This document shows, piece after piece, positions 42,718 through 63,125 of a stretch of 64,000 nt of DNA. The DNA lies in NCBI GenBank assembly GCA_965231095.1, contig OZ246416.1, positions 50,938 through 114,937 on the forward strand, read 5' to 3'. This DNA is from an uncultured Gammaproteobacteria bacterium. GTDB lineage: Bacteria > Patescibacteriota > Patescibacteriia > XYB2-FULL-38-15. Every line of letters starts with the position of its first letter. Position 1 is the stretch's first letter. The position numbers were made by a program, and so were the translations under genes. The notes under the pieces were generated by a model. That model did not search any database. It worked only from the letters and a program-made list of their open reading frames with translations, and was not told the origin of the DNA.

Positions 42718-43632
42718 ATGGCGAAGTATGAAAAGCTGAACCTGGGTCAGATTGAAGCGCTCGTGAACATCTTGGGTGGCATGGAGGTCGTGAAGAAGAT
42801 TCTTCGCGGGACGAAGAAGCCTCTTCCCCCGGACAAAGGCTTTCGGTCCCTTTTTGACAACTACGGCCGCCGCGTTGCGCCTCCTACGATGAGCGACAAG
42901 GGAGGAGCCGATCCGGAGGTGTGTTTGGCTCAGCCGGCGATGCATCTTCCACCGGGACCGGGAACAAGGTTCAAGGGTTTGTGCGAACGCCTTGGCTGGC
43001 AGAACCAGATGACTCCGGAAGAATTTCGCGCGCGGGTGGACAAGGCGGTAGAGAAGATCAACTTCGGCAGCATCAGAGAAGAGGTGAGGGGAATTTTGGG
43101 TGGTGTGTATCTGCCCTTTGGTCTTCCGCAGGTGACCTCCAGCGATTGCGGGGAGATCCTTGACGAACTCGGCTTGATCAATGCGGTTGAGCGTGTTTTC
43201 AAGGAAAGATTTCCCGAGGGGCAGTTTTTCGGACAAGAAAAATCCCTGAAGGGAGGCTTCCGCTTGATCGAAGGAAGTCGCCACGAGCGATTTTTGGAGG
43301 CCTTGACAAAGGAGCCGGTCGTTGCCATCTACTTCCCATTGGCGCTCCAAGGGTATTTGCCCGATAAGGCCGTCGAGCAGATGGAGAGCCTGCCGGAAGA
43401 GTTTCTGCTTTCCGGTGTGGTTGATACAGCGGCGGCGATCATGATGTATCCGGAAGTTCTACTTCGGGACACCTGCGTGCCGCAGCTCGGATGTTCGGCA
43501 GTGAAGCGCTGGGTGACCGGAGTTTCCTCATTCGATGTCAGTGACGGCAGCGACAAGATCACGCTCGCCTTCGGGGGGTGCCAGATCTTTGGGCGCGGCA
43601 AGTTTACTTCCGGCCTCACCGTCATCGCGTAG
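42718..43632 (+). CDS. GC-rich island C: hypothetical 304-aa protein, no recognisable domain
   Basis: ~60% GC; SD GGAAGGAGA 6 nt before ATG; TTGACT promoter-like element at 42605; downstream terminator 43695-43728. Confidence 0.6.
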   Translation: MAKYEKLNLGQIEALVNILGGMEVVKKILRGTKKPLPPDKGFRSLFDNYGRRVAPPTMSDKGGADPEVCLAQPAMHLPPGPGTRFKGLCERLGWQNQMTPEEFRARVDKAVEKINFGSIREEVRGILGGVYLPFGLPQVTSSDCGEILDELGLINAVERVFKERFPEGQFFGQEKSLKGGFRLIEGSRHERFLEALTKEPVVAIYFPLALQGYLPDKAVEQMESLPEEFLLSGVVDTAAAIMMYPEVLLRDTCVPQLGCSAVKRWVTGVSSFDVSDGSDKITLAFGGCQIFGRGKFTSGLTVIA

Positions 43633-48738: not shown

Positions 48739-49623
48739 TTAAATTTCAAAAATAGCAATTCTATTTCTTCCCGAAAGATCTTGTTTAATCTTAATTTTTG
48801 CGGAAGGGAAGCGGCGTTTGATTAATTTTGTGATGGATTTTTTTTGAGAAGGGTCGATTTCAAAGATTGAAGTAATGGGTGACGAGTAATGGGTAACGAG
48901 GAATTCTATTTGTTGGAGGAGCTCGCGGTAATAATTTAAGCCATCGGTACCGCCGTCAAGCGCCGTTCGTGGTTCGTATTTTTTTATTTCCGGCTGGGTT
49001 TTTTGCCATTGGCGGGTTGTGAGATACGGAAGGTTGGCGACAATTAATAAATTTTCAATTTTCAATTTACAATTTTCAATTTTGCGAATTACAGGTTTTA
49101 GTAAGTCGCCATGGATTAGGGTGACGGCCGCCTCGTGGTGTTTAATATTTTTTCTTGCCACCTCCATGGCGCCGGAGGAAATTTCCGTGGCGAAGATTTT
49201 GGCATTGGGCAGACGGCGGGCAAGTGCGATGGCGATGGCCCCGCTTCCGGTTCCGACATCGACGATTGATGTATCTTGTATCTTGTATTTTGTATTTTGT
49301 ATTTTTCTCAAAACTTCCTCCACTAAAATTTCCGTTTCGGGGCGGGGGATTAAAACATTTTTGTTTACAAAAAAATCCAGGCCAAAAAATTCTTTGAGGC
49401 CAGTGATGTAGGCGATTGGTTCATGTTTGGCGCGGCGGGCGATAAGTTTTTTAAATTTTAACAATTGTGCCGCCGTCAATTTTTTTTCAGAATGCGCGTA
49501 TAAAAATTCTCGCGGTTTTTTTATGACAAAAGATAAAAGAATCTCGGCGTCCAAAGACGGGGAGAGAGTTTTTGATTTTTTTAAAATTTTTATCGCCCAG
49601 ACGATGGATTGTTTGATGGTCAT
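48739..49623 (-). CDS. prmC: release factor glutamine N5-methyltransferase PrmC/HemK with several in-frame tandem-repeat inserts
   Basis: SAM motif VDVGTGSGAIAIALA, NLPY substrate motif; in-frame repeats at 48860-48895, 49040-49090, 49265-49300. Confidence 0.85.
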   Translation of the reverse strand: MTIKQSIVWAIKILKKSKTLSPSLDAEILLSFVIKKPREFLYAHSEKKLTAAQLLKFKKLIARRAKHEPIAYITGLKEFFGLDFFVNKNVLIPRPETEILVEEVLRKIQNTKYKIQDTSIVDVGTGSGAIAIALARRLPNAKIFATEISSGAMEVARKNIKHHEAAVTLIHGDLLKPVIRKIENCKLKIENLLIVANLPYLTTRQWQKTQPEIKKYEPRTALDGGTDGLNYYRELLQQIEFLVTHYSSPITSIFEIDPSQKKSITKLIKRRFPSAKIKIKQDLSGRNRIAIFEI

Positions 49624-49650
49624 ATAAATATTTAAATATTATAACATAAA

Positions 49651-49692
49651 AAATCACCCGAGCGTTGCGTGCGATTGGGCGCGCAAAACTCG
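49651..49692 (-). terminator. intrinsic terminator of island D 197-aa gene
   Basis: Minus strand CACCCGAGttttgcgcgcccaatcgcacgcaacgCTCGGGTGattttttat. Confidence 0.6.
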
Positions 49693-49706
49693 GGTGTGAC
49701 GGTCGG

Positions 49707-50297
49707 TTACGGGGAAGTGATGTCCTTCGTCCCGTCGTAGGGATCGCCGGAGTCGGCGGAATCGTCGGCGGGCGGCGCAGCGGGCGAGACGACCTCGACT
49801 TCCTCCTCGATGTCCTCGGCCACCACGACCGTGGTTTCCGGCGCGTCTTCGAGGATCTCGACCATCTTCATCGCCTGGCGCACACAGGCCGACAGCTCGG
49901 CGGTGGAGAAGGCGTAGGAGAGTTGTTCGAAGGTAACCCGGCGTCCTGGTTCCGTGTCCTTCGACATCCAGTGTTCGATCAGCTTGGCGAGATCATCGTC
50001 GGAGACGCGTTTCAGGATCTCCTCGATCGCGGATTTTGCGCCGTTCTCGATACCGCCGAGCATCGCCTGGCGCATGATGGGCACGGTGTCTTTCTTGTCA
50101 CCGGGCCAGATCCCGAGTAGATCGCCAACGATCTTCTCGAAGGTGTGCACTTGGGCAATGTGAGCCAGGCCGCTGGCCCGGCTCAAATTGATGTGGTGCA
50201 AGATGATCCAGATGTTCAGGACGCCGAGATCCACGAAGTGCTGGAGCATCGCCGCTAGCGTCAACTTCTTGTCTCTTTCCTTCTTGGATTCCGCCAT
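49707..50297 (-). CDS. GC-rich island D gene 2: hypothetical ~197-aa protein (helical, acidic C-terminal tail)
   Basis: MAESKKERDKKLTLAAMLQHFVDLGVLNIWIILHH...; ~62% GC; minus-strand promoter cTTGACAa-N17-TAAGGT at 50342-50370; 5' UTR palindrome CTCCGATTAATCGGAG. Confidence 0.55.
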   Translation of the reverse strand: MAESKKERDKKLTLAAMLQHFVDLGVLNIWIILHHINLSRASGLAHIAQVHTFEKIVGDLLGIWPGDKKDTVPIMRQAMLGGIENGAKSAIEEILKRVSDDDLAKLIEHWMSKDTEPGRRVTFEQLSYAFSTAELSACVRQAMKMVEILEDAPETTVVVAEDIEEEVEVVSPAAPPADDSADSGDPYDGTKDITSP

Positions 50298-50382
50298 TGT
50301 CTTCCACTCGCTCCGATTAATCGGAGTCCTTTCTATCCGCACCTTAGTTTAAAAAATAAAATTTGTCAAGATAAAAAAAGAG

Positions 50383-50445
50383 CCCGTGGATTGCTTGGAG
50401 TTGGGGCACGGGACGTGTCTCCAAAGCAATCCACGGGCTGGGTGA
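50383..50445 (-). terminator. long-stem intrinsic terminator after island D zinc-ribbon gene
   Basis: agcccgtggattgcttggag...ctccaaagcaatccacgggct ~20-bp stem followed on minus strand by ctcttttttt. Confidence 0.6.
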
Positions 50446-50608
50446 TGCCCAGCGGGTGCCGTGAGGCTGGCCGGCTGGGCTCAGTCGCGTGACCCGCCCG
50501 GGGGGTAGGAGGGCACCGGGGAGCCGACGCGAGCTTGGGGAACGGAGAGTTCTCGAGCGAACTCGCAAACTCTCACGTTATTGGTGGGTAAGTTACAGGC
50601 GGGTCTTG

Positions 50609-50881
50609 TCAGGGTCGGGGGCAGTTCCGGACGACATGCATTCGCTTGCGCCTGGCGCGGGCGACGCCGTCCGTGTACTTCTTGCCCTTGCGTTCGGCGA
50701 AAGTGTGCATCGAGCAGTAGTGCCCGGTATTCCCGCTACGGAGAATCGTTCCACAGTCGGGTTCCTGGCATCGCCGCGGCTTGCCATCGTCGGTGCTCCG
50801 ACCGCTGTCGTGCACGTCGCCGAGCGAATTGGCGCCGACCGTGCCGGTACCCTGATCCATTCCGAGCGCGCTCCAGTCCAT
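50609..50881 (-). CDS. GC-rich island D gene 1: 90-aa Cys/His-cluster (zinc-ribbon-like) protein, possibly nucleic-acid binding
   Basis: ...RRCQEPDCGTILRSGNTGHYCSMHTF...; SD GGAGGAGGAAGG before ATG; 5' UTR hairpin ccttgcgt..acgcaagg. Confidence 0.55.
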   Translation of the reverse strand: MDWSALGMDQGTGTVGANSLGDVHDSGRSTDDGKPRRCQEPDCGTILRSGNTGHYCSMHTFAERKGKKYTDGVARARRKRMHVVRNCPRP

Positions 50882-51004
50882 CCTTCCTCCTCCTCAACCT
50901 TCCCTATTATCAACTCGTCCTGTCCACCAGGCCGAGGCTTAGGGCCACCTTCCTTGCGTTTTGACGCGTGCCAATAACGCAAGGCCACCCTGTTTGTTGA
51001 TTTT

Positions 51005-51065
51005 AGAATATAATAAAAAGCTTAATTTGTCAACCCCTTGACAAATTTTAAGATTGTGGTAGAGT
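51005..51065. promoter_or_regulatory. divergent sigma70-type promoter pair with palindromic overlapping -35 boxes (TTGTCAAccccTTGACAA)
   Basis: Plus: TTGACA(51038-43)-N16-TAGAGT(51060-65). Minus: TTGACA-N16-TATTCT (plus agaata 51005-10). Perfect inverted repeat ttgtcaa/ttgacaa around cccc. Confidence 0.55.
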
Positions 51066-51071
51066 GTTCTG

Positions 51072-51388
51072 TAGGGTAATGGGGAGTCCTGTTTGGTTGA
51101 TGCCGGCAGCGCACCGGCGTCGTGGGCAGTCATTTTTTGCTTCACTCTGAATCCGGAACCCTTGGCTGGTGAACAGCGCGTTGTAGCGCGGCTGGCCTTG
51201 TGGCGAAGGACCCACGGAGTGGCCCGACAGGAACCCGGTTCGCGAGCTGCCCGTTAAGCAGACGTGGGCTGAAATCTCCCCAGCGCATCTGATCCTCCAA
51301 GTCCGCTTCGGCGGGCACGGAGGTCACCATTCTTTGCACACCGCTGCATTTCGCGTTGTGCCCGTCGGTCGAACACCCTGTTCGACCG
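51072..51388 (+). ncRNA. candidate ~320-nt GC-rich structured non-coding RNA of unknown class, driven by the island D plus-strand promoter and ending in a strong intrinsic terminator
   Basis: No plus-strand ORF with SD; CCGCuucgGCGG UUCG tetraloop hairpin, several GC stems; terminator GTCGGTCGAACaccctGTTCGACCGACtctttttt at 51354-51388. Confidence 0.45.
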
Positions 51389-51394
51389 ACTCTT

Positions 51395-51418
51395 TTTTAT
51401 ATAAAAAACCGGCCTTGC
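51395..51418 (-). terminator. intrinsic terminator of prfA
   Basis: Minus strand CCGGCCgcaaGGCCGGtttttt, preceded by cccgactaaagtcggg hairpin. Confidence 0.6.
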
Positions 51419-51489
51419 GGCCGGAGGGAACGGAGTCCCGACTTTAGTCGGGTTATACATTGCCCACCCTGAAGAGTGGACTCCAAAAT

Positions 51490-52530
51490 TTAGTTTATAT
51501 CTTTTTTCAATACCTCAATAATTCCGTCCAATTCGCCGTCCATTACGTTATTAATATTGTGCCAACTTTCTTTTACCCGATGATCGGAAACGCGGTCTTG
51601 GGGAAAATTGTAAGTTCTGATTTTTTCCGCGCGCATGGCCGAACCGATTTGCGAACGCCGCGACGCAACTTCTGCCGCCTGGCGTTTTTCTTGTTCCATG
51701 GCAAAAAGACGGGCGCGCAAAACCTGCATGGCTTTTTCCCGGTTTTGCTGCTGCGATCGTTCGTCTTGGCAGGCGACAACAAGCCCGGTTGGAAGATGCG
51801 TAATTCTTACGGCCGAATATGTTGTTTGCACGCTTTGTCCGCCGTGGCCGCCGGATAAAAATGTATCAATGCGCAAATCCTTTGGTTCAATTTTTATATC
51901 AATTTCTTCGGCTTCGGGAAGTACGGCGACCGAGGCGGTTGAGGTATGAACCCGTCCGCTTTTTTCCGTGTCCGGAACGCGCTGAACGCGGTGCACGCCG
52001 CTTTCAAATTTTAAATTTCCCCAGGCGCCTTTTCCAATGACGGAAAAAATAATTTCTTTAAAACCGCCGAGGTCAGTGCGGCTTGAGGATATTAATCTTG
52101 TCTGCCAACCTTTCCATTCGGCAAACATGGAATACATTCTGAATAATTGCGCGGCAAAAAGCGCGGCCTCGTCTCCGCCCGCGCCGGCCCGGATTTCCAC
52201 AATAATATTTCTTTTGTCCAGCGGATCTTTTGGCGTCAGCTCTTCTTTGATTTCTATTTCAAGCGCTGCCTTATCTTGCCGAATTTTTTCCAACTCATCT
52301 TTCGCGATGGCGACCAGTTCCGGAACATTTTGTTTTGCGACTGTTTCTGTGTCGGCTTCTTCTTTTTCCCATTTATGAAATTTTTTTATTTTTTCCATCA
52401 CGTCTTTTATCTCGCTGTATTCACGGGAAACGGTTTTTAATTTTTCCGGATTAGAAACCACCTCGGGGCGGGCAAGTTCCGCTTCGAGTTCGGCAAAACG
52501 TTTTTCAGCTTTTTGGATTTCCGGGAGCAT
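51490..52530 (-). CDS. prfA: peptide chain release factor 1
   Basis: GGQ motif [12 protein letters not shown], PxT-type recognition motif RVPDTE, RF-1 size 346 aa; normally directly upstream of prmC. Confidence 0.85.
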
Positions 52531-56000: not shown

Positions 56001-57020
<1,020 letters not shown>

Positions 57021-57754: not shown

Positions 57755-57847
57755 CGGGCGACGGTCAACAGTTAACAGTAATAAATATAGAGCGGGTTTT
57801 ATGCCCGCCTTTTTTGTGTTATAATGTTTTAATGTTAAAACGATTTT

Positions 57848-58813
57848 ATGACTCATAGCGAGTTGCAAAAATTTGTCGGATTTTTGATGAAGCGCGGTTA
57901 TATTGTGTGGGCGCCGGAAAAACGGCCGGAGGAAGTGGTCTACGCGAAAGTGGAAGACGCTACAAAAGTGAAATTGATTTCCGAGCCGCCGCTGCATTCG
58001 TTCAAGAGATTTTTAGTTCCGCCCGAGGAAACGCTTTTTGAATATAAAAAAGATAAAATGAGTGAAGCGCGGGAGAAGGGAGGGCAGGTAATTTTTGGTA
58101 TTAATCCGGTGGATTTAAAAGCGGTGGTAATGCTGAATCAAATTTTTGAGCGCGATCCGTGGTACCAAGAAAGAATGCGGCGGACGTTAATTATCGGCCA
58201 GAGTTTGATTCCGGAAGATGCCGAGCAAAATCTTTTCCAAATTAAATACGAAGAAGATATTTTGGAACATTTGCAATTTGATATTTTTTTGGAGGTGCAG
58301 AAAAATAAATATTTTGTTTTTACCGGTTCGGAAGAAGGGCAGAAAATTTTGGAAAAATTCGGGTACAAAGATTATGAGCATGTTGCCTACGCCGGCCCGA
58401 TTAAAGAAAGTGGGTTGGATCCCATGATGGTGAAATATCGCGACGCACTCCGGAAAAATTATAAAAAAGAAATTTGGGAGGAAGATGTTGGCGCGCGTTG
58501 CATTGAATGCGGGAAATGTACTTTAATTTGTCCGACTTGTTTTTGTTTTGATATGAAAGATCAGCCGGATCTCGTGGGCGACGGGGGAACGAGAAAACGG
58601 ACGTGGGGCGCCTGTTTTTATAATGATTTCTCAGAAGTCGCTGGCGGACATAAATTTTTGAAGACGACGGCGGAGAGAATTCATTTTTGGTATTATCATA
58701 AATTTGTTCGGATTCCCGACCAGATTCAGATTATGGGTTGCGTCGGCTGCGGGCGATGCGCGAAAGTTTGCCCCGTGAATATTAATATTTTTAAAGTGCT
58801 GGCGGCGTTATGA
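57848..58813 (+). CDS. sulfhydrogenase (group 3b [NiFe]-hydrogenase) beta subunit-like 4Fe-4S protein
   Basis: CIECGKCTLICPTCFC and CVGCGRCAKVCPVNI ferredoxin-type cluster motifs; operon context with gamma, delta, alpha subunits. Confidence 0.7.
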   Translation: MTHSELQKFVGFLMKRGYIVWAPEKRPEEVVYAKVEDATKVKLISEPPLHSFKRFLVPPEETLFEYKKDKMSEAREKGGQVIFGINPVDLKAVVMLNQIFERDPWYQERMRRTLIIGQSLIPEDAEQNLFQIKYEEDILEHLQFDIFLEVQKNKYFVFTGSEEGQKILEKFGYKDYEHVAYAGPIKESGLDPMMVKYRDALRKNYKKEIWEEDVGARCIECGKCTLICPTCFCFDMKDQPDLVGDGGTRKRTWGACFYNDFSEVAGGHKFLKTTAERIHFWYYHKFVRIPDQIQIMGCVGCGRCAKVCPVNINIFKVLAAL

Positions 58814-59622
58814 AAAATCCATATCAAACAGAGTCCGTAAAAATTTTAAAGATTGAGGACGAAGGTTCGCGTTCTCGGCTTTTTACGCTCGCCGCGCCGC
58901 GCGGATTTAAGGTTAAAAGTGGACAGTTCGTGGAAATTTCTTTGCCGGGATTTGGCGAGGCGCCGATTTCACTTTGTTCTGATCCGTTGGAAAAAAATAA
59001 ATTTGAATTGTGCGTCCGAAAAGCGGGAATGGTGACGGGCGCTCTGCACAAAATGAAAGTTGGCGACAAAGTCGGAGTGCGCGGCCCGTACGGCCGGCCG
59101 TTTCCGGTGGAACTTGGAAAAAAAAGAAATTTACTTTTGGTGGCCGGCGGATTGGGTTTGGAACCATTACGTCCAGCGATTTGGGAAATTATGAAAAACC
59201 GCGAGCAGTTTCAAAAAGTCCAAATTTTTTACGGCGCTTGCGACGAGAATGATTTGCTTTTTGCGAAAAATTACGACGAGTGGAAGAAAAAAATTGATTT
59301 ACATATTACCCTTGATAAACCAAGGGGCGGCAAAACTCCGGTGGCTTGCGGCACGGGCGTTGTCACCACACTTTTTGATCACGTAAAACTTTATAAAAAA
59401 CCGGTGGCGTTTTTGTGCGGTCCGCCCGTGATGTATAGATTTGTCATTAAAAAATTAAAAGAATTAAATTTTGAAGATAGCGATATATATTTATCGCTCG
59501 AGCGGCGGATGCATTGCGGCATCGGCGTTTGTAATCACTGCGCCGTCGGGAGTTTTTTTGTCTGCCAGGACGGTCCGGTTTTTTCTTGGGCGGAATTGAA
59601 AGATATTCGCGGCGCGATATAA
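58810..59622 (+). CDS. sulfhydrogenase gamma subunit-like FAD/NAD(P)-binding oxidoreductase with C-terminal 2Fe-2S motif
   Basis: Ferredoxin-NADP reductase-like fold, C-terminal CGIGVCNHCAV. Confidence 0.7.
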   Translation: MKNPYQTESVKILKIEDEGSRSRLFTLAAPRGFKVKSGQFVEISLPGFGEAPISLCSDPLEKNKFELCVRKAGMVTGALHKMKVGDKVGVRGPYGRPFPVELGKKRNLLLVAGGLGLEPLRPAIWEIMKNREQFQKVQIFYGACDENDLLFAKNYDEWKKKIDLHITLDKPRGGKTPVACGTGVVTTLFDHVKLYKKPVAFLCGPPVMYRFVIKKLKELNFEDSDIYLSLERRMHCGIGVCNHCAVGSFFVCQDGPVFSWAELKDIRGAI

Positions 59623-59659
59623 ACCTGACAATTAACAGTTGACAATTAACAATTAACAG

Positions 59660-60565
59660 TTGACTATGAAAAATAAAGGATATTTTTTGGTTTTAGGAAC
59701 GGCGATAATTTCCGGCGTTTCTATTTTTGTAAATCAGTTTGGCGTTAAAGTTATCAATTCGGATATTTTTACCGGTTTGAAAAATATAGTGGTGGCCGTA
59801 ATTTTGTTGTGTCTTATTTTTTGGTTTAAAGAATGGAAGTTATTGGCAAAATTAAAAATCAAGGAATGGCTGACTTTGGTTTTAATCGGTTTGGTCGGCG
59901 GCAGCATTCCGTTTTTACTTTTCTTCAAGGGCCTGGCCGCGACAAGCGGAGCGAGCACGTCTTTTATTCATAAAACTTTATTTATTTATGTAATAATTTT
60001 GGCGGCGCTGTTTTTGAAAGAAAAAATAAGTAAAAATTTAGCGATCGGCGCGGCCTTGCTTTTGCTCGGCAATGTGGCGCTCTTGAAAATTTTTAATGGA
60101 TTTCAATTCGGTTATGGCGAGTTATTGGTTTTGTTTGCTACGCTGTTTTGGGCGGCGGAACAAATTATTTCTAAGCGGGCGCTTCAAGATATTTCTCCGA
60201 AAATTGTCGCTTGGGGCAGAATGTTTTTCGGATTTTTATTTATTTTTATTTTTTGGGCGGCGACGGGTCAGTTGAAATTGCTGGGCGGGGTGGGAGCGGC
60301 GGAATTAAGTTGGGTTTGGATTACAGCCGTTTTTCTTTTAGGCTATGTTTTAACTTGGTATTCTGGCTTGAAATATATAAAAGTTTCAACCGCGGCGTGT
60401 ATTTTATCTTTAGGCGCGCCAATTACCAGCTTGCTTGAAATGGCGCAAAAAGGAATTTTTGATTGGCAGATTTTTCTCGGGAGTTTGTTGATGTTTGCGG
60501 GAGTAATTTTAGCGGTAGATTTATTTTCACGGATTAAAATGGCGGCAACAAACGCGATCCGTTAA
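59660..60565 (+). CDS. EamA/DMT superfamily transporter, flanked by ~35-bp inverted repeats
   Basis: 10 TM helices in two EamA-like halves; flanking caattaacagttgacaattaac (59629-59663) and its reverse complement (60561-60597). Confidence 0.65.
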   Translation: MTMKNKGYFLVLGTAIISGVSIFVNQFGVKVINSDIFTGLKNIVVAVILLCLIFWFKEWKLLAKLKIKEWLTLVLIGLVGGSIPFLLFFKGLAATSGASTSFIHKTLFIYVIILAALFLKEKISKNLAIGAALLLLGNVALLKIFNGFQFGYGELLVLFATLFWAAEQIISKRALQDISPKIVAWGRMFFGFLFIFIFWAATGQLKLLGGVGAAELSWVWITAVFLLGYVLTWYSGLKYIKVSTAACILSLGAPITSLLEMAQKGIFDWQIFLGSLLMFAGVILAVDLFSRIKMAATNAIR

Positions 60566-60599
60566 CTGTCAACTGTTAATTGTTAACTGTTTATTTACC

Positions 60600-60833
60600 A
60601 TGTGTTTTGGTGTCCCTTGTAAAATTGAAAAAGTAAATAAAAATAAAGCCACCATAAAAAATGGCGGCAAAGTTTTTGATATAGACACCTCGCTCTTGCC
60701 AAAAATAAAAAAAAATGATTGGATATTGGTGCAGGGCAATATTGGAATGAAGCAAATATCGGAGGATGAAGCAAAAAGTTGCCTTGCCGTTTTGGACGAA
60801 TTCCAAAGTAAAGAGGGGAAGGGAGGACTGTGA
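60600..60833 (+). CDS. hypC: [NiFe]-hydrogenase maturation chaperone HypC/HupF family
   Basis: N-terminal MCFGVPCKI (MCxxxP signature), ~77 aa. Confidence 0.75.
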   Translation: MCFGVPCKIEKVNKNKATIKNGGKVFDIDTSLLPKIKKNDWILVQGNIGMKQISEDEAKSCLAVLDEFQSKEGKGGL

Positions 60834-61567
60834 TGGAGAGAACATACGCAAGAGCGGCGCGCTACGCGCTCTATCCGAACATGCTCGGGCTTTGCGGGCC
60901 GCGCGGAAGGGGCAAGGAAAAACTCTACGAGTATTTGACTCTCAAGACCAAGGTGGACGACCAAGAGGCGAGGGAATTACTCGAGCAATTCACCGCGGCC
61001 ACGGCCTACATGAAACTGATTGCCGCGGCAAACGAGATTCCGGACTGGCTGGATCCGAGGGTGGTTGACGCCTACTGGATTGGAAACGACCTTTTGAACC
61101 TTGTCCGCGCCGAGGATCTGAAGGAATTGATCCATGGTCTCGTTCTAGCAGGAAAGCTTGCCGAGTCCGCGGCGGAAGAAGCGATTGCCCGTGTCCACCG
61201 CGATCATCGTCCGCACCATAGCTTCCATGTTTTTGTGATCGGCGGACTTTCCGGCCAAGTGGAGCGCGGGTCAATCGGCTGGGAACTTTGCCGTATCGGC
61301 TGGGGGACGGTCGCCCGCGTCAAGCATGACGGCAACCTCACAGTTTTGGCAGAGTCTTTGTTGCAAAAGGGCGGCAAGATTTTTCCTGAACTTGAGGGAG
61401 TGGAAAGAGAGCGGCTCATCAGGCGCGACCGGGAACTTTTCCCACGCGTTTCCTCTGGTGACCTCGTTGCTTTCCACTGGGGCAGAGTGGTTGAAATTAT
61501 TGACCACGACGCAGCACGGCGGCTGGACTATTGGACCGAACGGACGCTCCGGCACTGCAGACTGTAG
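60833..61567 (+). CDS. GC-rich island F: hypothetical 244-aa protein inserted in the hydrogenase cluster directly after hypC
   Basis: ~60% GC; SD AAGGGAGG; start overlaps hypC stop (gtgATGg); terminator 61593-61625 AGACTAGCttttaggGGCTAGTCttttttt. Confidence 0.55.
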   Translation: MERTYARAARYALYPNMLGLCGPRGRGKEKLYEYLTLKTKVDDQEARELLEQFTAATAYMKLIAAANEIPDWLDPRVVDAYWIGNDLLNLVRAEDLKELIHGLVLAGKLAESAAEEAIARVHRDHRPHHSFHVFVIGGLSGQVERGSIGWELCRIGWGTVARVKHDGNLTVLAESLLQKGGKIFPELEGVERERLIRRDRELFPRVSSGDLVAFHWGRVVEIIDHDAARRLDYWTERTLRHCRL

Positions 61568-61592
61568 AAAAAATCCATCGCAAACGTTTTCG

Positions 61593-61625
61593 GAGACTAG
61601 CTTTTAGGGGCTAGTCTTTTTTTGT
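61593..61625 (+). terminator. intrinsic terminator of island F
   Basis: GAGACTAGCttttagggGCTAGTCTttttttgtg. Confidence 0.65.
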
Positions 61626-61676
61626 GAATAAAAAATTCCGCCGAAGCGGATTTTTATTTTTGATATTTAATTTTTT

Positions 61677-62309
61677 TTAAAGTTTTTTTATAAGATTAAT
61701 TACTTCATCGTCGGTCGTCTGGCCAAATTCTTCGTAAAAAGATCCGACGGCGCCGAAAAAGGCCGGAGCTTCAAGATAAATTATTTCGTGAACTTCTTTT
61801 TTTATCAATTCCGCCGCTTCCGGCGAAGTGATAGGAGTGGCGACAATAATTTTTGCCGCGCCCATTTTTTCCACAGATTTTATTGCCGCGCGCATCGTAA
61901 GCCCGGTTGCCAGGCCGTCGTCAACAATAATGGCGGTTTTATTTTTCAGATCAAACGGCGAACGCGAACCTCGGTATAATTTTAACCGTCGCCCTGCTTC
62001 GACTTTTTCTTTTTCAATTTCATTTTGTAAATAAGATTCAGTTATTCCGTAAGCGCCGACTGTCATTTCGTCAAAAACTCCTTCGCCAGTCTCGGTAATG
62101 GCGCCGATCGCAAATTCGGGATTTCCCGGCGCGCCGATTTTTCGGGGGACAACAATATCCATCGGCAAGTTCAATTTTTTTGCCACTTCATACCCGACAA
62201 CAACTCCGCCTCTTGGCAAGGCCATGATTACGGTATTTGCCGCGTTTTTAAATTTTTCCAGCGCTTCAGCCAATTTTTGGCCTGCTTCCACGCGATTTTT
62301 GAATAACAT
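61677..62309 (-). CDS. type I phosphoribosyltransferase domain protein
   Basis: PRPP-binding motif TAIIVDDGLATGLTMRAA; start set at MLFKNRVEAG. Confidence 0.7.
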   Translation of the reverse strand: MLFKNRVEAGQKLAEALEKFKNAANTVIMALPRGGVVVGYEVAKKLNLPMDIVVPRKIGAPGNPEFAIGAITETGEGVFDEMTVGAYGITESYLQNEIEKEKVEAGRRLKLYRGSRSPFDLKNKTAIIVDDGLATGLTMRAAIKSVEKMGAAKIIVATPITSPEAAELIKKEVHEIIYLEAPAFFGAVGSFYEEFGQTTDDEVINLIKKL

Positions 62310-62357
62310 ATTAATAAATAATAGCAGTTTTAAACATTCCGTAAAAGTGCTATAATA

Positions 62358-63125
62358 ATGAAACATATGCCGAAGCCAACATTAGCCATTGCCAGCATGA
62401 CTTGTTGTGAAGGTTGTCAGGTGGAAATTTTGAATTTAGGGAAAAGGTTATTGGACATTTTCCAGGTTTTTGATTTAGGAAATTTTTCCTGGGCAGAAGA
62501 AAAGCGCGAACGGCCAAGTTATGACATCGCTGTGGTTGAGGGCACGCCGCTTACGGAAGAGGATATAAAATATTTAAAAGAATTAAGAAAAAAATCAAAA
62601 ATTTTGGTGGCGATTGGGAGTTGCGCCCATTTGGGCGGAGTTCAGGAAATAAAAAATTACGCCGAAAAAAATAAAGATGAAAAAGTAAAATACGTTTATC
62701 CAAAATATCAGCGGATACAAAATCCGACGGTCGTGCCGGTTTGGAAAGTGGTGAAAGTTGATTATACCGTGCCGTGCTGTCCGATTGATAAAGATGAATT
62801 TTTTCGGGTGATTTCAGATATTGCTTTTGGGCGCGCGCCGCGGATTCCTCTTCGACCGGTGTGTTTTGAGTGCCAGACACAAGGATATGAGTGTCTTTTG
62901 CAAAAAGGGGAGCCGTGTCTTGGGCCAATTACGATCGGCGGTTGCAAAGCGATTTGTTTACGCAGTAAAAGATTTTGCTACGGTTGCCGCGGACCGCTCG
63001 CTGGAGCCGGATCGCAAATTAAAAAACATCTGCGGAATTTAGAAAAATTAGTTGGGAAAAAATATCTCGCCGAAATTATGGAAACCTACGGCGCGGAAGA
63101 CGATTTTTTACGAATTGAAAAATAA
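62358..63125 (+). CDS. [NiFe]-hydrogenase small subunit (sulfhydrogenase delta-like)
   Basis: TCCEGCQV proximal cluster motif, GSCAHLGG, CPIDKDEF, C-terminal Cys cluster. Confidence 0.75.
   Translation: MKHMPKPTLAIASMTCCEGCQVEILNLGKRLLDIFQVFDLGNFSWAEEKRERPSYDIAVVEGTPLTEEDIKYLKELRKKSKILVAIGSCAHLGGVQEIKNYAEKNKDEKVKYVYPKYQRIQNPTVVPVWKVVKVDYTVPCCPIDKDEFFRVISDIAFGRAPRIPLRPVCFECQTQGYECLLQKGEPCLGPITIGGCKAICLRSKRFCYGCRGPLAGAGSQIKKHLRNLEKLVGKKYLAEIMETYGAEDDFLRIEK

Follow-up and report, generated by a model that had tools for sequence, protein, structure and literature searches.

In a 64,000-nt stretch of DNA from an uncultured bacterium placed by GTDB in the Patescibacteriota (assembly GCA_965231095.1, contig OZ246416.1; hereafter the window, to whose positions all coordinates refer unless a locus is named), a GC-rich gene of 244 codons lies directly behind hypC, within a [NiFe]-hydrogenase operon. 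The locus raises the question of whether this gene was inserted into the operon or belongs to it and, in the latter case, what it may contribute to the hydrogenase. A reading made from the sequence alone had described an unknown gene inserted after hypC that interrupts the order of the subunit genes and that could be either a hydrogenase accessory or maturation factor captured from a high-GC donor or a member of an island family that exploits the transcription of the operon. Its account of the layout was borne out. The open reading frame (ORF) overlaps hypC by 1 nt, the A of the hypC stop codon TGA (60831–60833) being shared with the ATG at 60833; its GC content is 0.574 against 0.438 for the window; a terminator-like hairpin of 12 pairs with a T-run follows it, found as a match to a consensus only; and profile matches returned the neighbours as named, namely the beta and gamma subunits, EamA, hypC, a phosphoribosyltransferase (PRTase) on the opposite strand, and the delta and alpha subunits. 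The gene itself belongs to the Pfam family DUF6390, and all lines of evidence below considered, it is very probably a native, conserved, hydrogenase-linked accessory gene.

A HypC-like domain in a widespread family

The window protein matched DUF6390 (PF19927) over its full length, with 139.4 bits against a gathering cut-off of 25 (E-value 1.8e-40) and residues 9–242 aligned to model positions 9–236 of 244. It is not an unknown, as had been supposed, but a typical full-length member of a family whose entry (in Pfam as DUF6390, at NCBI as 'DUF6390 family protein') carries no function. No other Pfam family and no DNA-binding domain were present in the protein. All of the 109 relatives retrieved by a word-indexed search belonged to the same family. 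An exhaustive profile search put it at no fewer than 1,777 clusters (50 % identity), and GTDB representative genomes, one per species, yielded 565 or more loci. Carriers included many classes of Patescibacteria, DPANN archaea, Chloroflexota (among them the cultured Nitrolancea hollandica), Thermoplasmata, Actinomycetota and Dormibacterota.

Two domains make up the protein, the first all-helical and the second sharing with HypC, HybG, HupF and HoxL (PF01455, TIGR00074) an oligonucleotide/oligosaccharide-binding (OB) fold beta-barrel followed by a C-terminal helix. In a 52-member alignment P15, C21, G22, Y81, W82, G84, H128, H129, H132, C153, H215 and W216 were invariant; all are present in the window protein, which also carries each of the family motifs (PN.LG.CG, AYWIGN, HHSFHV, CR..WG and GD.V..HW). 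The invariant C153 aligned with Cys2 of HypC and the invariant H215-W216 with the position of the conserved HypC His. There is little doubt that the C-terminal domain derives from HypC, the chaperone that carries the Fe(CN)2CO unit. DUF6390 is homologous to HypC in this domain and is itself no HypC: the window protein gave no match to PF01455 at E≤0.01, and with TIGR00074 it scored 16.7 bits against a threshold of 48, over residues 200–232 only. HypC proteins have a single domain of ~70–110 aa, compared with two domains in 244 aa here, and the essential Cys2 of HypC becomes its N-terminal residue (PMC12134894), whereas the equivalent in DUF6390 is internal. The DUF6390 module is also found fused to helix-turn-helix (HTH) domains or to EamA, and such fusions have not been described for HypC. 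A search of solved structures returned no fold matching the N-terminal helical domain, and neither a [4Fe-4S] or nucleotide-binding motif nor similarity to HypD or HypX was detected in the window protein.

A further likeness is to the extra, lineage-specific helpers that are encoded in hydrogenase clusters, such as HupF of Rhizobium and ancillary proteins of the HoxL/HoxV type. HupF is paralogous to HypC and carries an additional segment (PMC12134894). It keeps the N-terminal Cys and has a C-terminal tail tied to O2 protection, whereas DUF6390 has a large N-terminal domain bearing Cys and His residues and, unlike HupF, occurs mainly in anaerobic or reduced-genome lineages, along with Chloroflexota and Actinomycetota.

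DUF6390 does not replace HypC, a separate copy of which always accompanies it. Among 82 HypC proteins encoded at DUF6390 loci, Cys2 was present in all 82 and the conserved His in 13; the other residues found at the His position included Gln (37 proteins, the window HypC among them), Tyr (9), Asn (7) and Asp (6). DUF6390 always has a His at the equivalent position. The two proteins could divide labour between them, a lead drawn from counts that cover only the HypC proteins of DUF6390 loci.

Linkage to hydrogenase and transporter genes

DUF6390 occupied the same slot in six relatives, at 47, 50, 51, 65, 67 and 100 % identity, and was at this site in every syntenic relative examined (47–88 % identity). 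The gene order in the clade is S2-Tsf-PSP1-GAPDH-beta-gamma-(EamA)-HypC-DUF6390-(PRTase, minus strand)-delta-alpha-HypA-PGK, and shorter contigs with orthologs of 57–84 % identity agreed with it. The stop/start junction between hypC and DUF6390 was likewise conserved among orthologs, and a GGAGG-type Shine–Dalgarno sequence was kept in the closer ones (L090, L093 and L001) and was weaker in L003, L005 and L170. In other Patescibacteria, at ~35 % identity, the order was beta-gamma-HypC-EamA-DUF6390-delta-alpha-HypA. Because these distant relatives also set HypC, EamA and DUF6390 between gamma and delta, the subunit order of the operon has been 'interrupted' for a long time, and the conserved position shows that the gene is not an insert. 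The operon corresponds to the 'hyd1' clusters of the candidate phyla radiation (CPR) described by Jaffe et al. 2020 (PMC7304191); of the context, those authors recorded only a HypC-like family. No direct or inverted repeats were found to bracket the DUF6390 gene, an Rfam scan of the whole window returned just two tRNAs (at 47–878, none near the gene), and the neighbours are operon genes rather than those of an integrase or transposase. A compositional 'island' in a genome scan can thus be an old native operon gene.

The association with hydrogenase genes extends across phyla, the loci surveyed (more than 160) coming from Patescibacteria, DPANN, Chloroflexota, Thermoplasmata and Actinomycetota. 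In a Chloroflexota metagenome-assembled genome (MAG) the order is HypA-HypC-EamA-DUF6390-...-beta-gamma-delta-alpha-HycI, and an unassigned high-GC contig shares its core. In a Nocardioides MAG, DUF6390 precedes a Peripla_BP_2/FecCD/ABC (ATP-binding cassette) importer and lies beside HypC-HypA-HycI-...-NifU and the large subunit. Neighbours were counted with small hidden Markov models built from the retrieved sequences; as many loci lie on short contigs, the numbers are lower bounds. HypC was found within 3 kb in 56 of 85 distinct loci and EamA in 62; the large subunit was found within 10 kb in 65 of the 85, and 77 had any hydrogenase or hyp gene. When 164 loci were scored within 4 kb, EamA (80) was the commonest neighbour family-wide, and the large subunit (76), small subunit (57), gamma (26), beta (20), SBP_bac_5 (14, with BPD_transp_1 permeases) and HycI (12) were also represented. 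Directly behind DUF6390, three loci encode a bona fide HypB (242 bits, cut-off 121). Several Chloroflexota clusters contain small subunits that bear NiFe_hyd_SSU_C, which is of the group 1/2 type. Since the hydrogenases at DUF6390 loci are not only of group 3b, a general, maturation-linked role is favoured over that of a 3b-specific subunit. This cross-phylum neighbourhood and the HypC-like domain back the earlier suggestion of a hydrogenase accessory or maturation factor.

Four to five types of transporter flank DUF6390: EamA of the drug/metabolite transporter (DMT) type, SBP_bac_5 ABC, Peripla_BP_2/FecCD ABC, SBP_bac_1/11-type ABC and, as a direct fusion, EamA. For the SBP_bac_5 neighbours the best match was the nickel-binding protein NikA (129–137 bits), and the model of the opine-metallophore protein CntA was also matched.

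Fusion forms were sought by scanning ten over-length DUF6390 members against Pfam. EamA and DUF6390 were joined in one protein (P0113), and five HTH fusions involved four unrelated families, as PadR-DUF6390, GntR-DUF6390, HTH_3/XRE-DUF6390 (twice) and DUF6390-MarR, the MarR domain sitting at the C-terminus. The HTH fusions amount to ~5 of the 150 best-scoring cluster representatives. Fused forms retain C21, HHSFH, C153 and H215-W216, with the exceptions of one substitution each in P0132 and P0198 and of the truncated P0241. The GntR fusion occurred in eight 90 %-identity clusters (61–100 % identity) drawn from NCBI, JGI and Logan assemblies, and this recurrence in independent sources indicates that it is not a gene-calling artefact. 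Its gene lies directly after HypC within a HycI/NifU maturation cluster and directly before an ABC importer in which a binding protein is accompanied by a permease of double length and a TOBE-bearing ATPase. In the Actinomycetota loci L173 (7210–11893) and L174 (1468–6119) the fusion nearly abuts or overlaps the three genes of the importer, and small CbiA/ParA-like ATPase genes are located nearby.

Two other families recur beside DUF6390. Immediately downstream of it, 36 loci (e.g. L101 6711–7118), mostly from Patescibacteria with a divergent pair of large and small subunits, have an ORF of a ~137-aa family unmatched in Pfam and NCBIfam; this family is absent from the window. In 12 loci of the Chloroflexota type (e.g. 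L126 6802–8064, L027 5676–6977 and, in N. hollandica, L042 4817–5428) DUF6390 is followed by a family of ~420–440 aa whose only match, to ThuA, is weak and below threshold.

The features of the operon are listed in Table 1. An in-frame GTG at 60830 offers an alternative start for DUF6390; the ATG at 60833 was taken as the start because the identical database protein has 244 aa. All four hydrogenase subunits are encoded: large, small (delta), beta (Fe-S) and gamma (FAD/NAD). The best matches of beta, gamma and delta were the sulfhydrogenase models ShyB, ShyC and ShyD, at scores below the equivalog cut-offs, and at this level of match the operon is compatible with a group 3b [NiFe]-hydrogenase. 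The large subunit has Ni-binding Cys motifs, and its full-length form (L172 12295–13560, from a second assembly of the same genome) shows a RICGIC...H motif and a C-terminus that is exactly DPCMTCATH; since all four Cys ligands are retained (4/4), the hydrogenase needs maturation.

Table 1. Location of the DUF6390 gene, its domains and its neighbours in the window
Feature	Position	Strand	Remarks
Hydrogenase beta subunit	57848..58813	+	
Hydrogenase gamma subunit	58810..59622	+	
EamA/DMT-family membrane transporter	59660..60565	+	PF00892, 119 bits
hypC	60600..60833	+	77 aa; PF01455 53.4 bits, TIGR00074 48.6 bits; Cys2 present, Gln at the usual His position
Shine–Dalgarno sequence AGGGAGGA	60820..60827	+	strong; 5 nt ahead of the DUF6390 ATG, inside the 3' end of hypC
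DUF6390 coding sequence	60833..61567	+	ORF of 244 aa plus stop TAG; PF19927; identical to database protein P0001
N-terminal all-helical domain	60833..61282	+	aa 1–150; invariant P15, C21-G22, AYWIGN (80–85), HHSFHV (128–133)
HypC-like OB-fold domain and C-terminal helix	61289..61564	+	aa 153–244; invariant C153, H215-W216
Terminator-like hairpin	61592..61626	+	12 pairs (61592–61619), then T-run; consensus scan match only; 3' of DUF6390
Short GC hairpin	61637..61650	.	T-runs on both strands (bidirectional terminator-like); consensus match; between DUF6390 and PRTase
PRTase	61677..62366	-	convergent with DUF6390; conserved at this spot within the clade only
Hydrogenase delta/small subunit	62358..63125	+	
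Hydrogenase large (alpha) subunit	63127 onward	+	gene cut by the window end (64000)

Several further observations concern the operon as a whole. The large subunit has no C-terminal extension to cleave and the clade loci have no HycI protease gene; HycI is carried by Chloroflexota, Thermoplasmata and Actinomycetota loci. In every clade member the operon is enclosed by glycolytic genes, GAPDH upstream and PGK with two iPGM paralogues downstream (window 56010–57020; L172 13832–19098), an arrangement consistent with a redox-balancing role. The 12-mer TTAACAGTTGAC is present in four copies, one with a mismatch, against 0.21 expected. All are in intergenic spacers of the operon, one before beta (57764–57775), two before EamA (59632–59643 and 59653–59664) and one before hypC (60568–60579), and they make up 35-nt inverted repeats that flank the EamA gene (59630–59664 and 60561–60595). 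Among the other fetched loci the 12-mer was found only in L172; it could be an operator motif or the scar of an EamA cassette. EamA is missing from the operon in the relatives L001 and L002. Small variable inserts occur in relatives, with a DUF559 (endonuclease-like) ORF between beta and gamma in L001 (6418–6837) and, in L170, an ORF with a weak reverse-transcriptase (RVT_1) match (574–999) immediately ahead of beta.

Base composition and history of the gene

The GC excess of the DUF6390 gene (z=3.3; GC at third codon positions, GC3, 0.66) is reached by 1.7 % of 735-nt windows. The step in GC content matches the start and stop of the gene within ~60 nt, and no other gene of the operon is GC-rich. 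The family as a whole has no such bias, with a median gene-minus-flank difference of +0.002 over 89 loci and gene GC contents ranging from 0.26 to 0.745. The excess is limited to the syntenic clade of the window, where it was +0.13 to +0.20 in the crown group (63–100 % identity), +0.12 in L095 and +0.13 in the basal L171. In L005 and L170, at similar synonymous distance, the offset was ~0 and the gene host-like. The sequence-only reading had itself held that an AT-rich ortholog at the same position would refute its proposal, and L005 and L170 have orthologs of host-like GC content there.

The shift within the gene affects GC at first codon positions (GC1), GC3, the content of Gly, Ala, Arg and Pro, and the Arg:Lys ratio. 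Four-fold degenerate sites were unsaturated, 0.42–0.54 being identical against 0.27–0.30 expected. When third-position changes were polarised in three independent triplets, 90 went from strong to weak bases (S>W) and 43 from weak to strong (W>S), whereas those in HypC, EamA, gamma and PRTase were balanced or reversed. Parsimony alone gave a ratio of ~1.5 (95 % range 0.96–2.3) in a stationary simulation, which places the observed 2.09 in about the 5 % tail. The asymmetry is suggestive of ongoing GC loss. Selection on mRNA structure was tried as a cause of the high GC content and was not significant (z −1.4 and −1.7).

A second GC-rich gene of the window (42718–43632; 304 aa, GC 0.57) has no Pfam family and belongs to an orphan family of eight members. 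Its 43 %-identical ortholog in a related genome (L175 1022–1909) has a GC content of 0.60, compared with ~0.45 for the neighbours, and its synonymous sites are equally unsaturated. Persistence of GC-rich genes at conserved positions hints at a trait of this lineage. The gene upstream of the L175 ortholog (204–797) is also GC-rich (0.625). Between prmC (48739–49623, minus strand) and prfA (51490–52530, minus strand), at 49600–51450, are three GC-rich blocks side by side with GC contents of up to 0.67; their overlapping ORFs, encoded on both strands, match no Pfam family, and the segments at 49.64–50.34 kb and 51.05–51.45 kb are weakly similar by tblastx. The ORFs of the other GC-rich patches had no Pfam family, the DUF6390 gene resembled none of these patches by blastn or tblastx, and PADLOC and PHROG (defence and phage) gave no match. 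A paper on horizontal gene transfer in Patescibacteria contained nothing on hydrogenases or GC-rich genes. In a neighbour-joining tree the nearest outgroups of the clade were other Patescibacteria and not actinobacteria, which is shallow evidence at 30–39 % identity.

These data bear on two accounts of how the gene came to be GC-rich. A recently acquired horizontal gene or selfish 'island' element, settled behind hypC and borrowing the transcription of the operon, would explain the atypical composition with sharp edges, the terminator-like hairpin and the presence of other GC-rich patches in the window. It is nonetheless highly improbable, given that the position, the Shine–Dalgarno sequence and the junction are conserved, that flanking repeats, a nearby tRNA, similarity to the other patches and PADLOC or PHROG matches were not found, and that the family is tied to hydrogenase genes across phyla. 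Recent capture from a high-GC donor sits equally poorly with occupancy of the same slot at 47–88 % identity and with Patescibacteria as nearest outgroups, and the notion of an island family is further countered by the wide distribution of DUF6390 compared with the eight-member orphan family of the one other island gene checked. Ancient acquisition has rather more in its favour. A GC-rich allele obtained from a GC-rich donor in the ancestor of the clade, where it replaced or founded the gene, and ameliorating since, would be compatible with an accessory function and would fit the excess shared by the crown group, L095 and L171, the raised GC1, GC3 and Gly/Ala/Arg/Pro content, the substitution asymmetry that the four neighbouring genes lack, the unsaturated synonymous sites, and the lateral transfer of CPR hydrogenase genes inferred by Jaffe et al. 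2020 (PMC7304191). Set against it are the absence of an identifiable donor, homologs outside the clade being at most 39 % identical; the Patescibacteria as nearest outgroups; a GC step that ends with the gene and spares the rest of the operon; the share of the asymmetry that parsimony alone can produce; the host-like L005 and L170; and the unrelated gene that is GC-rich in its ortholog as well, which hints at a lineage-wide process. Such an event in the clade ancestor is the leading idea, with the odds somewhat against it. The clade-wide GC excess is real, and an old acquisition fits it only partly.

Proposed role in hydrogenase biogenesis

With a probability of roughly 0.6, DUF6390 acts in the cytoplasm as a ligand-binding accessory to the biogenesis of [NiFe]-hydrogenase. 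The window protein would be produced together with HypC through translational coupling, and residues from both domains (C21, H128, H129, H132, C153 and H215) would form a putative site for a metal ion or a ligand that contains metal. The protein would tie ligand supply by the neighbouring transporter (EamA in this operon; at other loci an ABC importer, NikA-like or of another kind) to the HypC/HypA-dependent assembly of the active site, and in some Actinomycetota the HTH-fused module would be the sensing half of a regulator for transporter or hydrogenase genes. That the conserved Cys and His residues bind a ligand or metal of some kind is probable from their conservation. Nickel or a nickel chelate is a tentative choice, put at slightly less than even; it is favoured because the transporters classically encoded in hydrogenase clusters are nickel importers and because NikA-like SBP_bac_5 neighbours and an adjacent HypB occur at DUF6390 loci. 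Iron or the Fe(CN)2CO unit would be the second candidate because of the HypC ancestry, and the ligand may also be a non-metal. In its most specific form, the proposal would have a HypC-derived metal-binding protein take nickel, or the iron unit, from a dedicated membrane transporter to HypC/HypA, with HTH-fused versions acting as metal-responsive regulators and the family possibly replacing missing Hyp functions in the reduced genomes of Patescibacteria and DPANN; taken as a whole this version is rather unlikely. General parallels with HypA, HypB, SlyD and NikR lie in conserved positions rich in Cys and His, in the genomic ties to hydrogenase genes, NikA-like importers and HypB, and in the regulator form of the binding module, much as NikR joins Ni binding and DNA binding in separate domains of one protein. 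DUF6390 differs from them in having no sequence or fold similarity to any of the four and no GTPase domain, and its metal binding is putative.

A number of points weigh against this proposal. The HypC-equivalent Cys is internal, behind a folded domain of 150 aa, and since it is not N-terminal the chemistry of HypC may not apply. The flanking transporters are heterogeneous, the match of EamA to transporter models is generic, and the usual cargo of EamA/DMT proteins is organic metabolites. The NikA matches are far under the equivalog cut-off of 393, and the binding protein beside the GntR fusions best matches, weakly and below cut-off, models of the 2-aminoethylphosphonate type. In one-component regulators, recurrence of a domain on different HTH scaffolds marks it as the ligand-sensing module, and the HTH fusions speak for sensing without necessarily implying metal delivery. 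The accessory model also leaves the GC excess unaccounted for. In the literature library searched, there was no paper naming DUF6390, none describing its HypC-like domain, its linkage to hydrogenases and transporters or its fusions with HTH domains or EamA, nothing on a link between HypC, EamA and hydrogenase, and nothing relevant on hypD, hypE or hypF in Patescibacteria or DPANN.

The strongest functional competitor is a pure sensor or regulatory protein that would bind a small molecule or metal and control the adjacent transporter or a partner regulator, without taking a direct part in active-site assembly. Fusion to four unrelated HTH families and to EamA, the position of the GntR fusions directly upstream of importer genes and the retention of the putative ligand-site residues in fused forms all speak for it. 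The window protein, though, has no DNA-binding domain, is translationally coupled to hypC and has kept both the HypC fold and its key Cys and His; the HTH fusions are few among the best-scoring representatives, and adjacency to HypB suggests a place in a delivery chain, so that a regulator alone appears rather unlikely. Less probable still is an enzyme or scaffold for Fe(CN)2CO, for instance an alternative HypC partner that takes over some of the work of HypD, or a supplier of CO under anoxia. The HypC-like domain with its conserved Fe-binding Cys and His positions, a partner HypC that mostly lacks the His, and the frequency of the family in reduced genomes would suit such a function, as would the open questions of the anaerobic sources of CO and iron (PMC12134894). 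The missing [4Fe-4S] and nucleotide-binding motifs and the lack of similarity to HypD or HypX do not, and ligand binding, more than catalysis, would suit the association with importers and HypB and the HTH-fused sensor forms. An additional structural subunit of the group 3b hydrogenase, as the location between subunit genes might suggest, is very improbable: DUF6390 is also present in clusters of the group 1/2 type, where it stands beside HypC, HycI or HypB rather than beside subunit genes, and it occurs fused to HTH domains.

For anaerobic assembly of the [NiFe] cofactor six Hyp proteins are regarded as enough, and both the route by which iron and nickel reach the Hyp machinery and the anaerobic source of the CO ligand are considered open (PMC12134894). 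As an accessory protein that would act between transporters and HypC, DUF6390 is a candidate for a missing link from metal import or sensing to hydrogenase maturation. Its relevance would be greatest for the CPR and DPANN, in which hydrogenases are central to the inferred fermentative metabolism.

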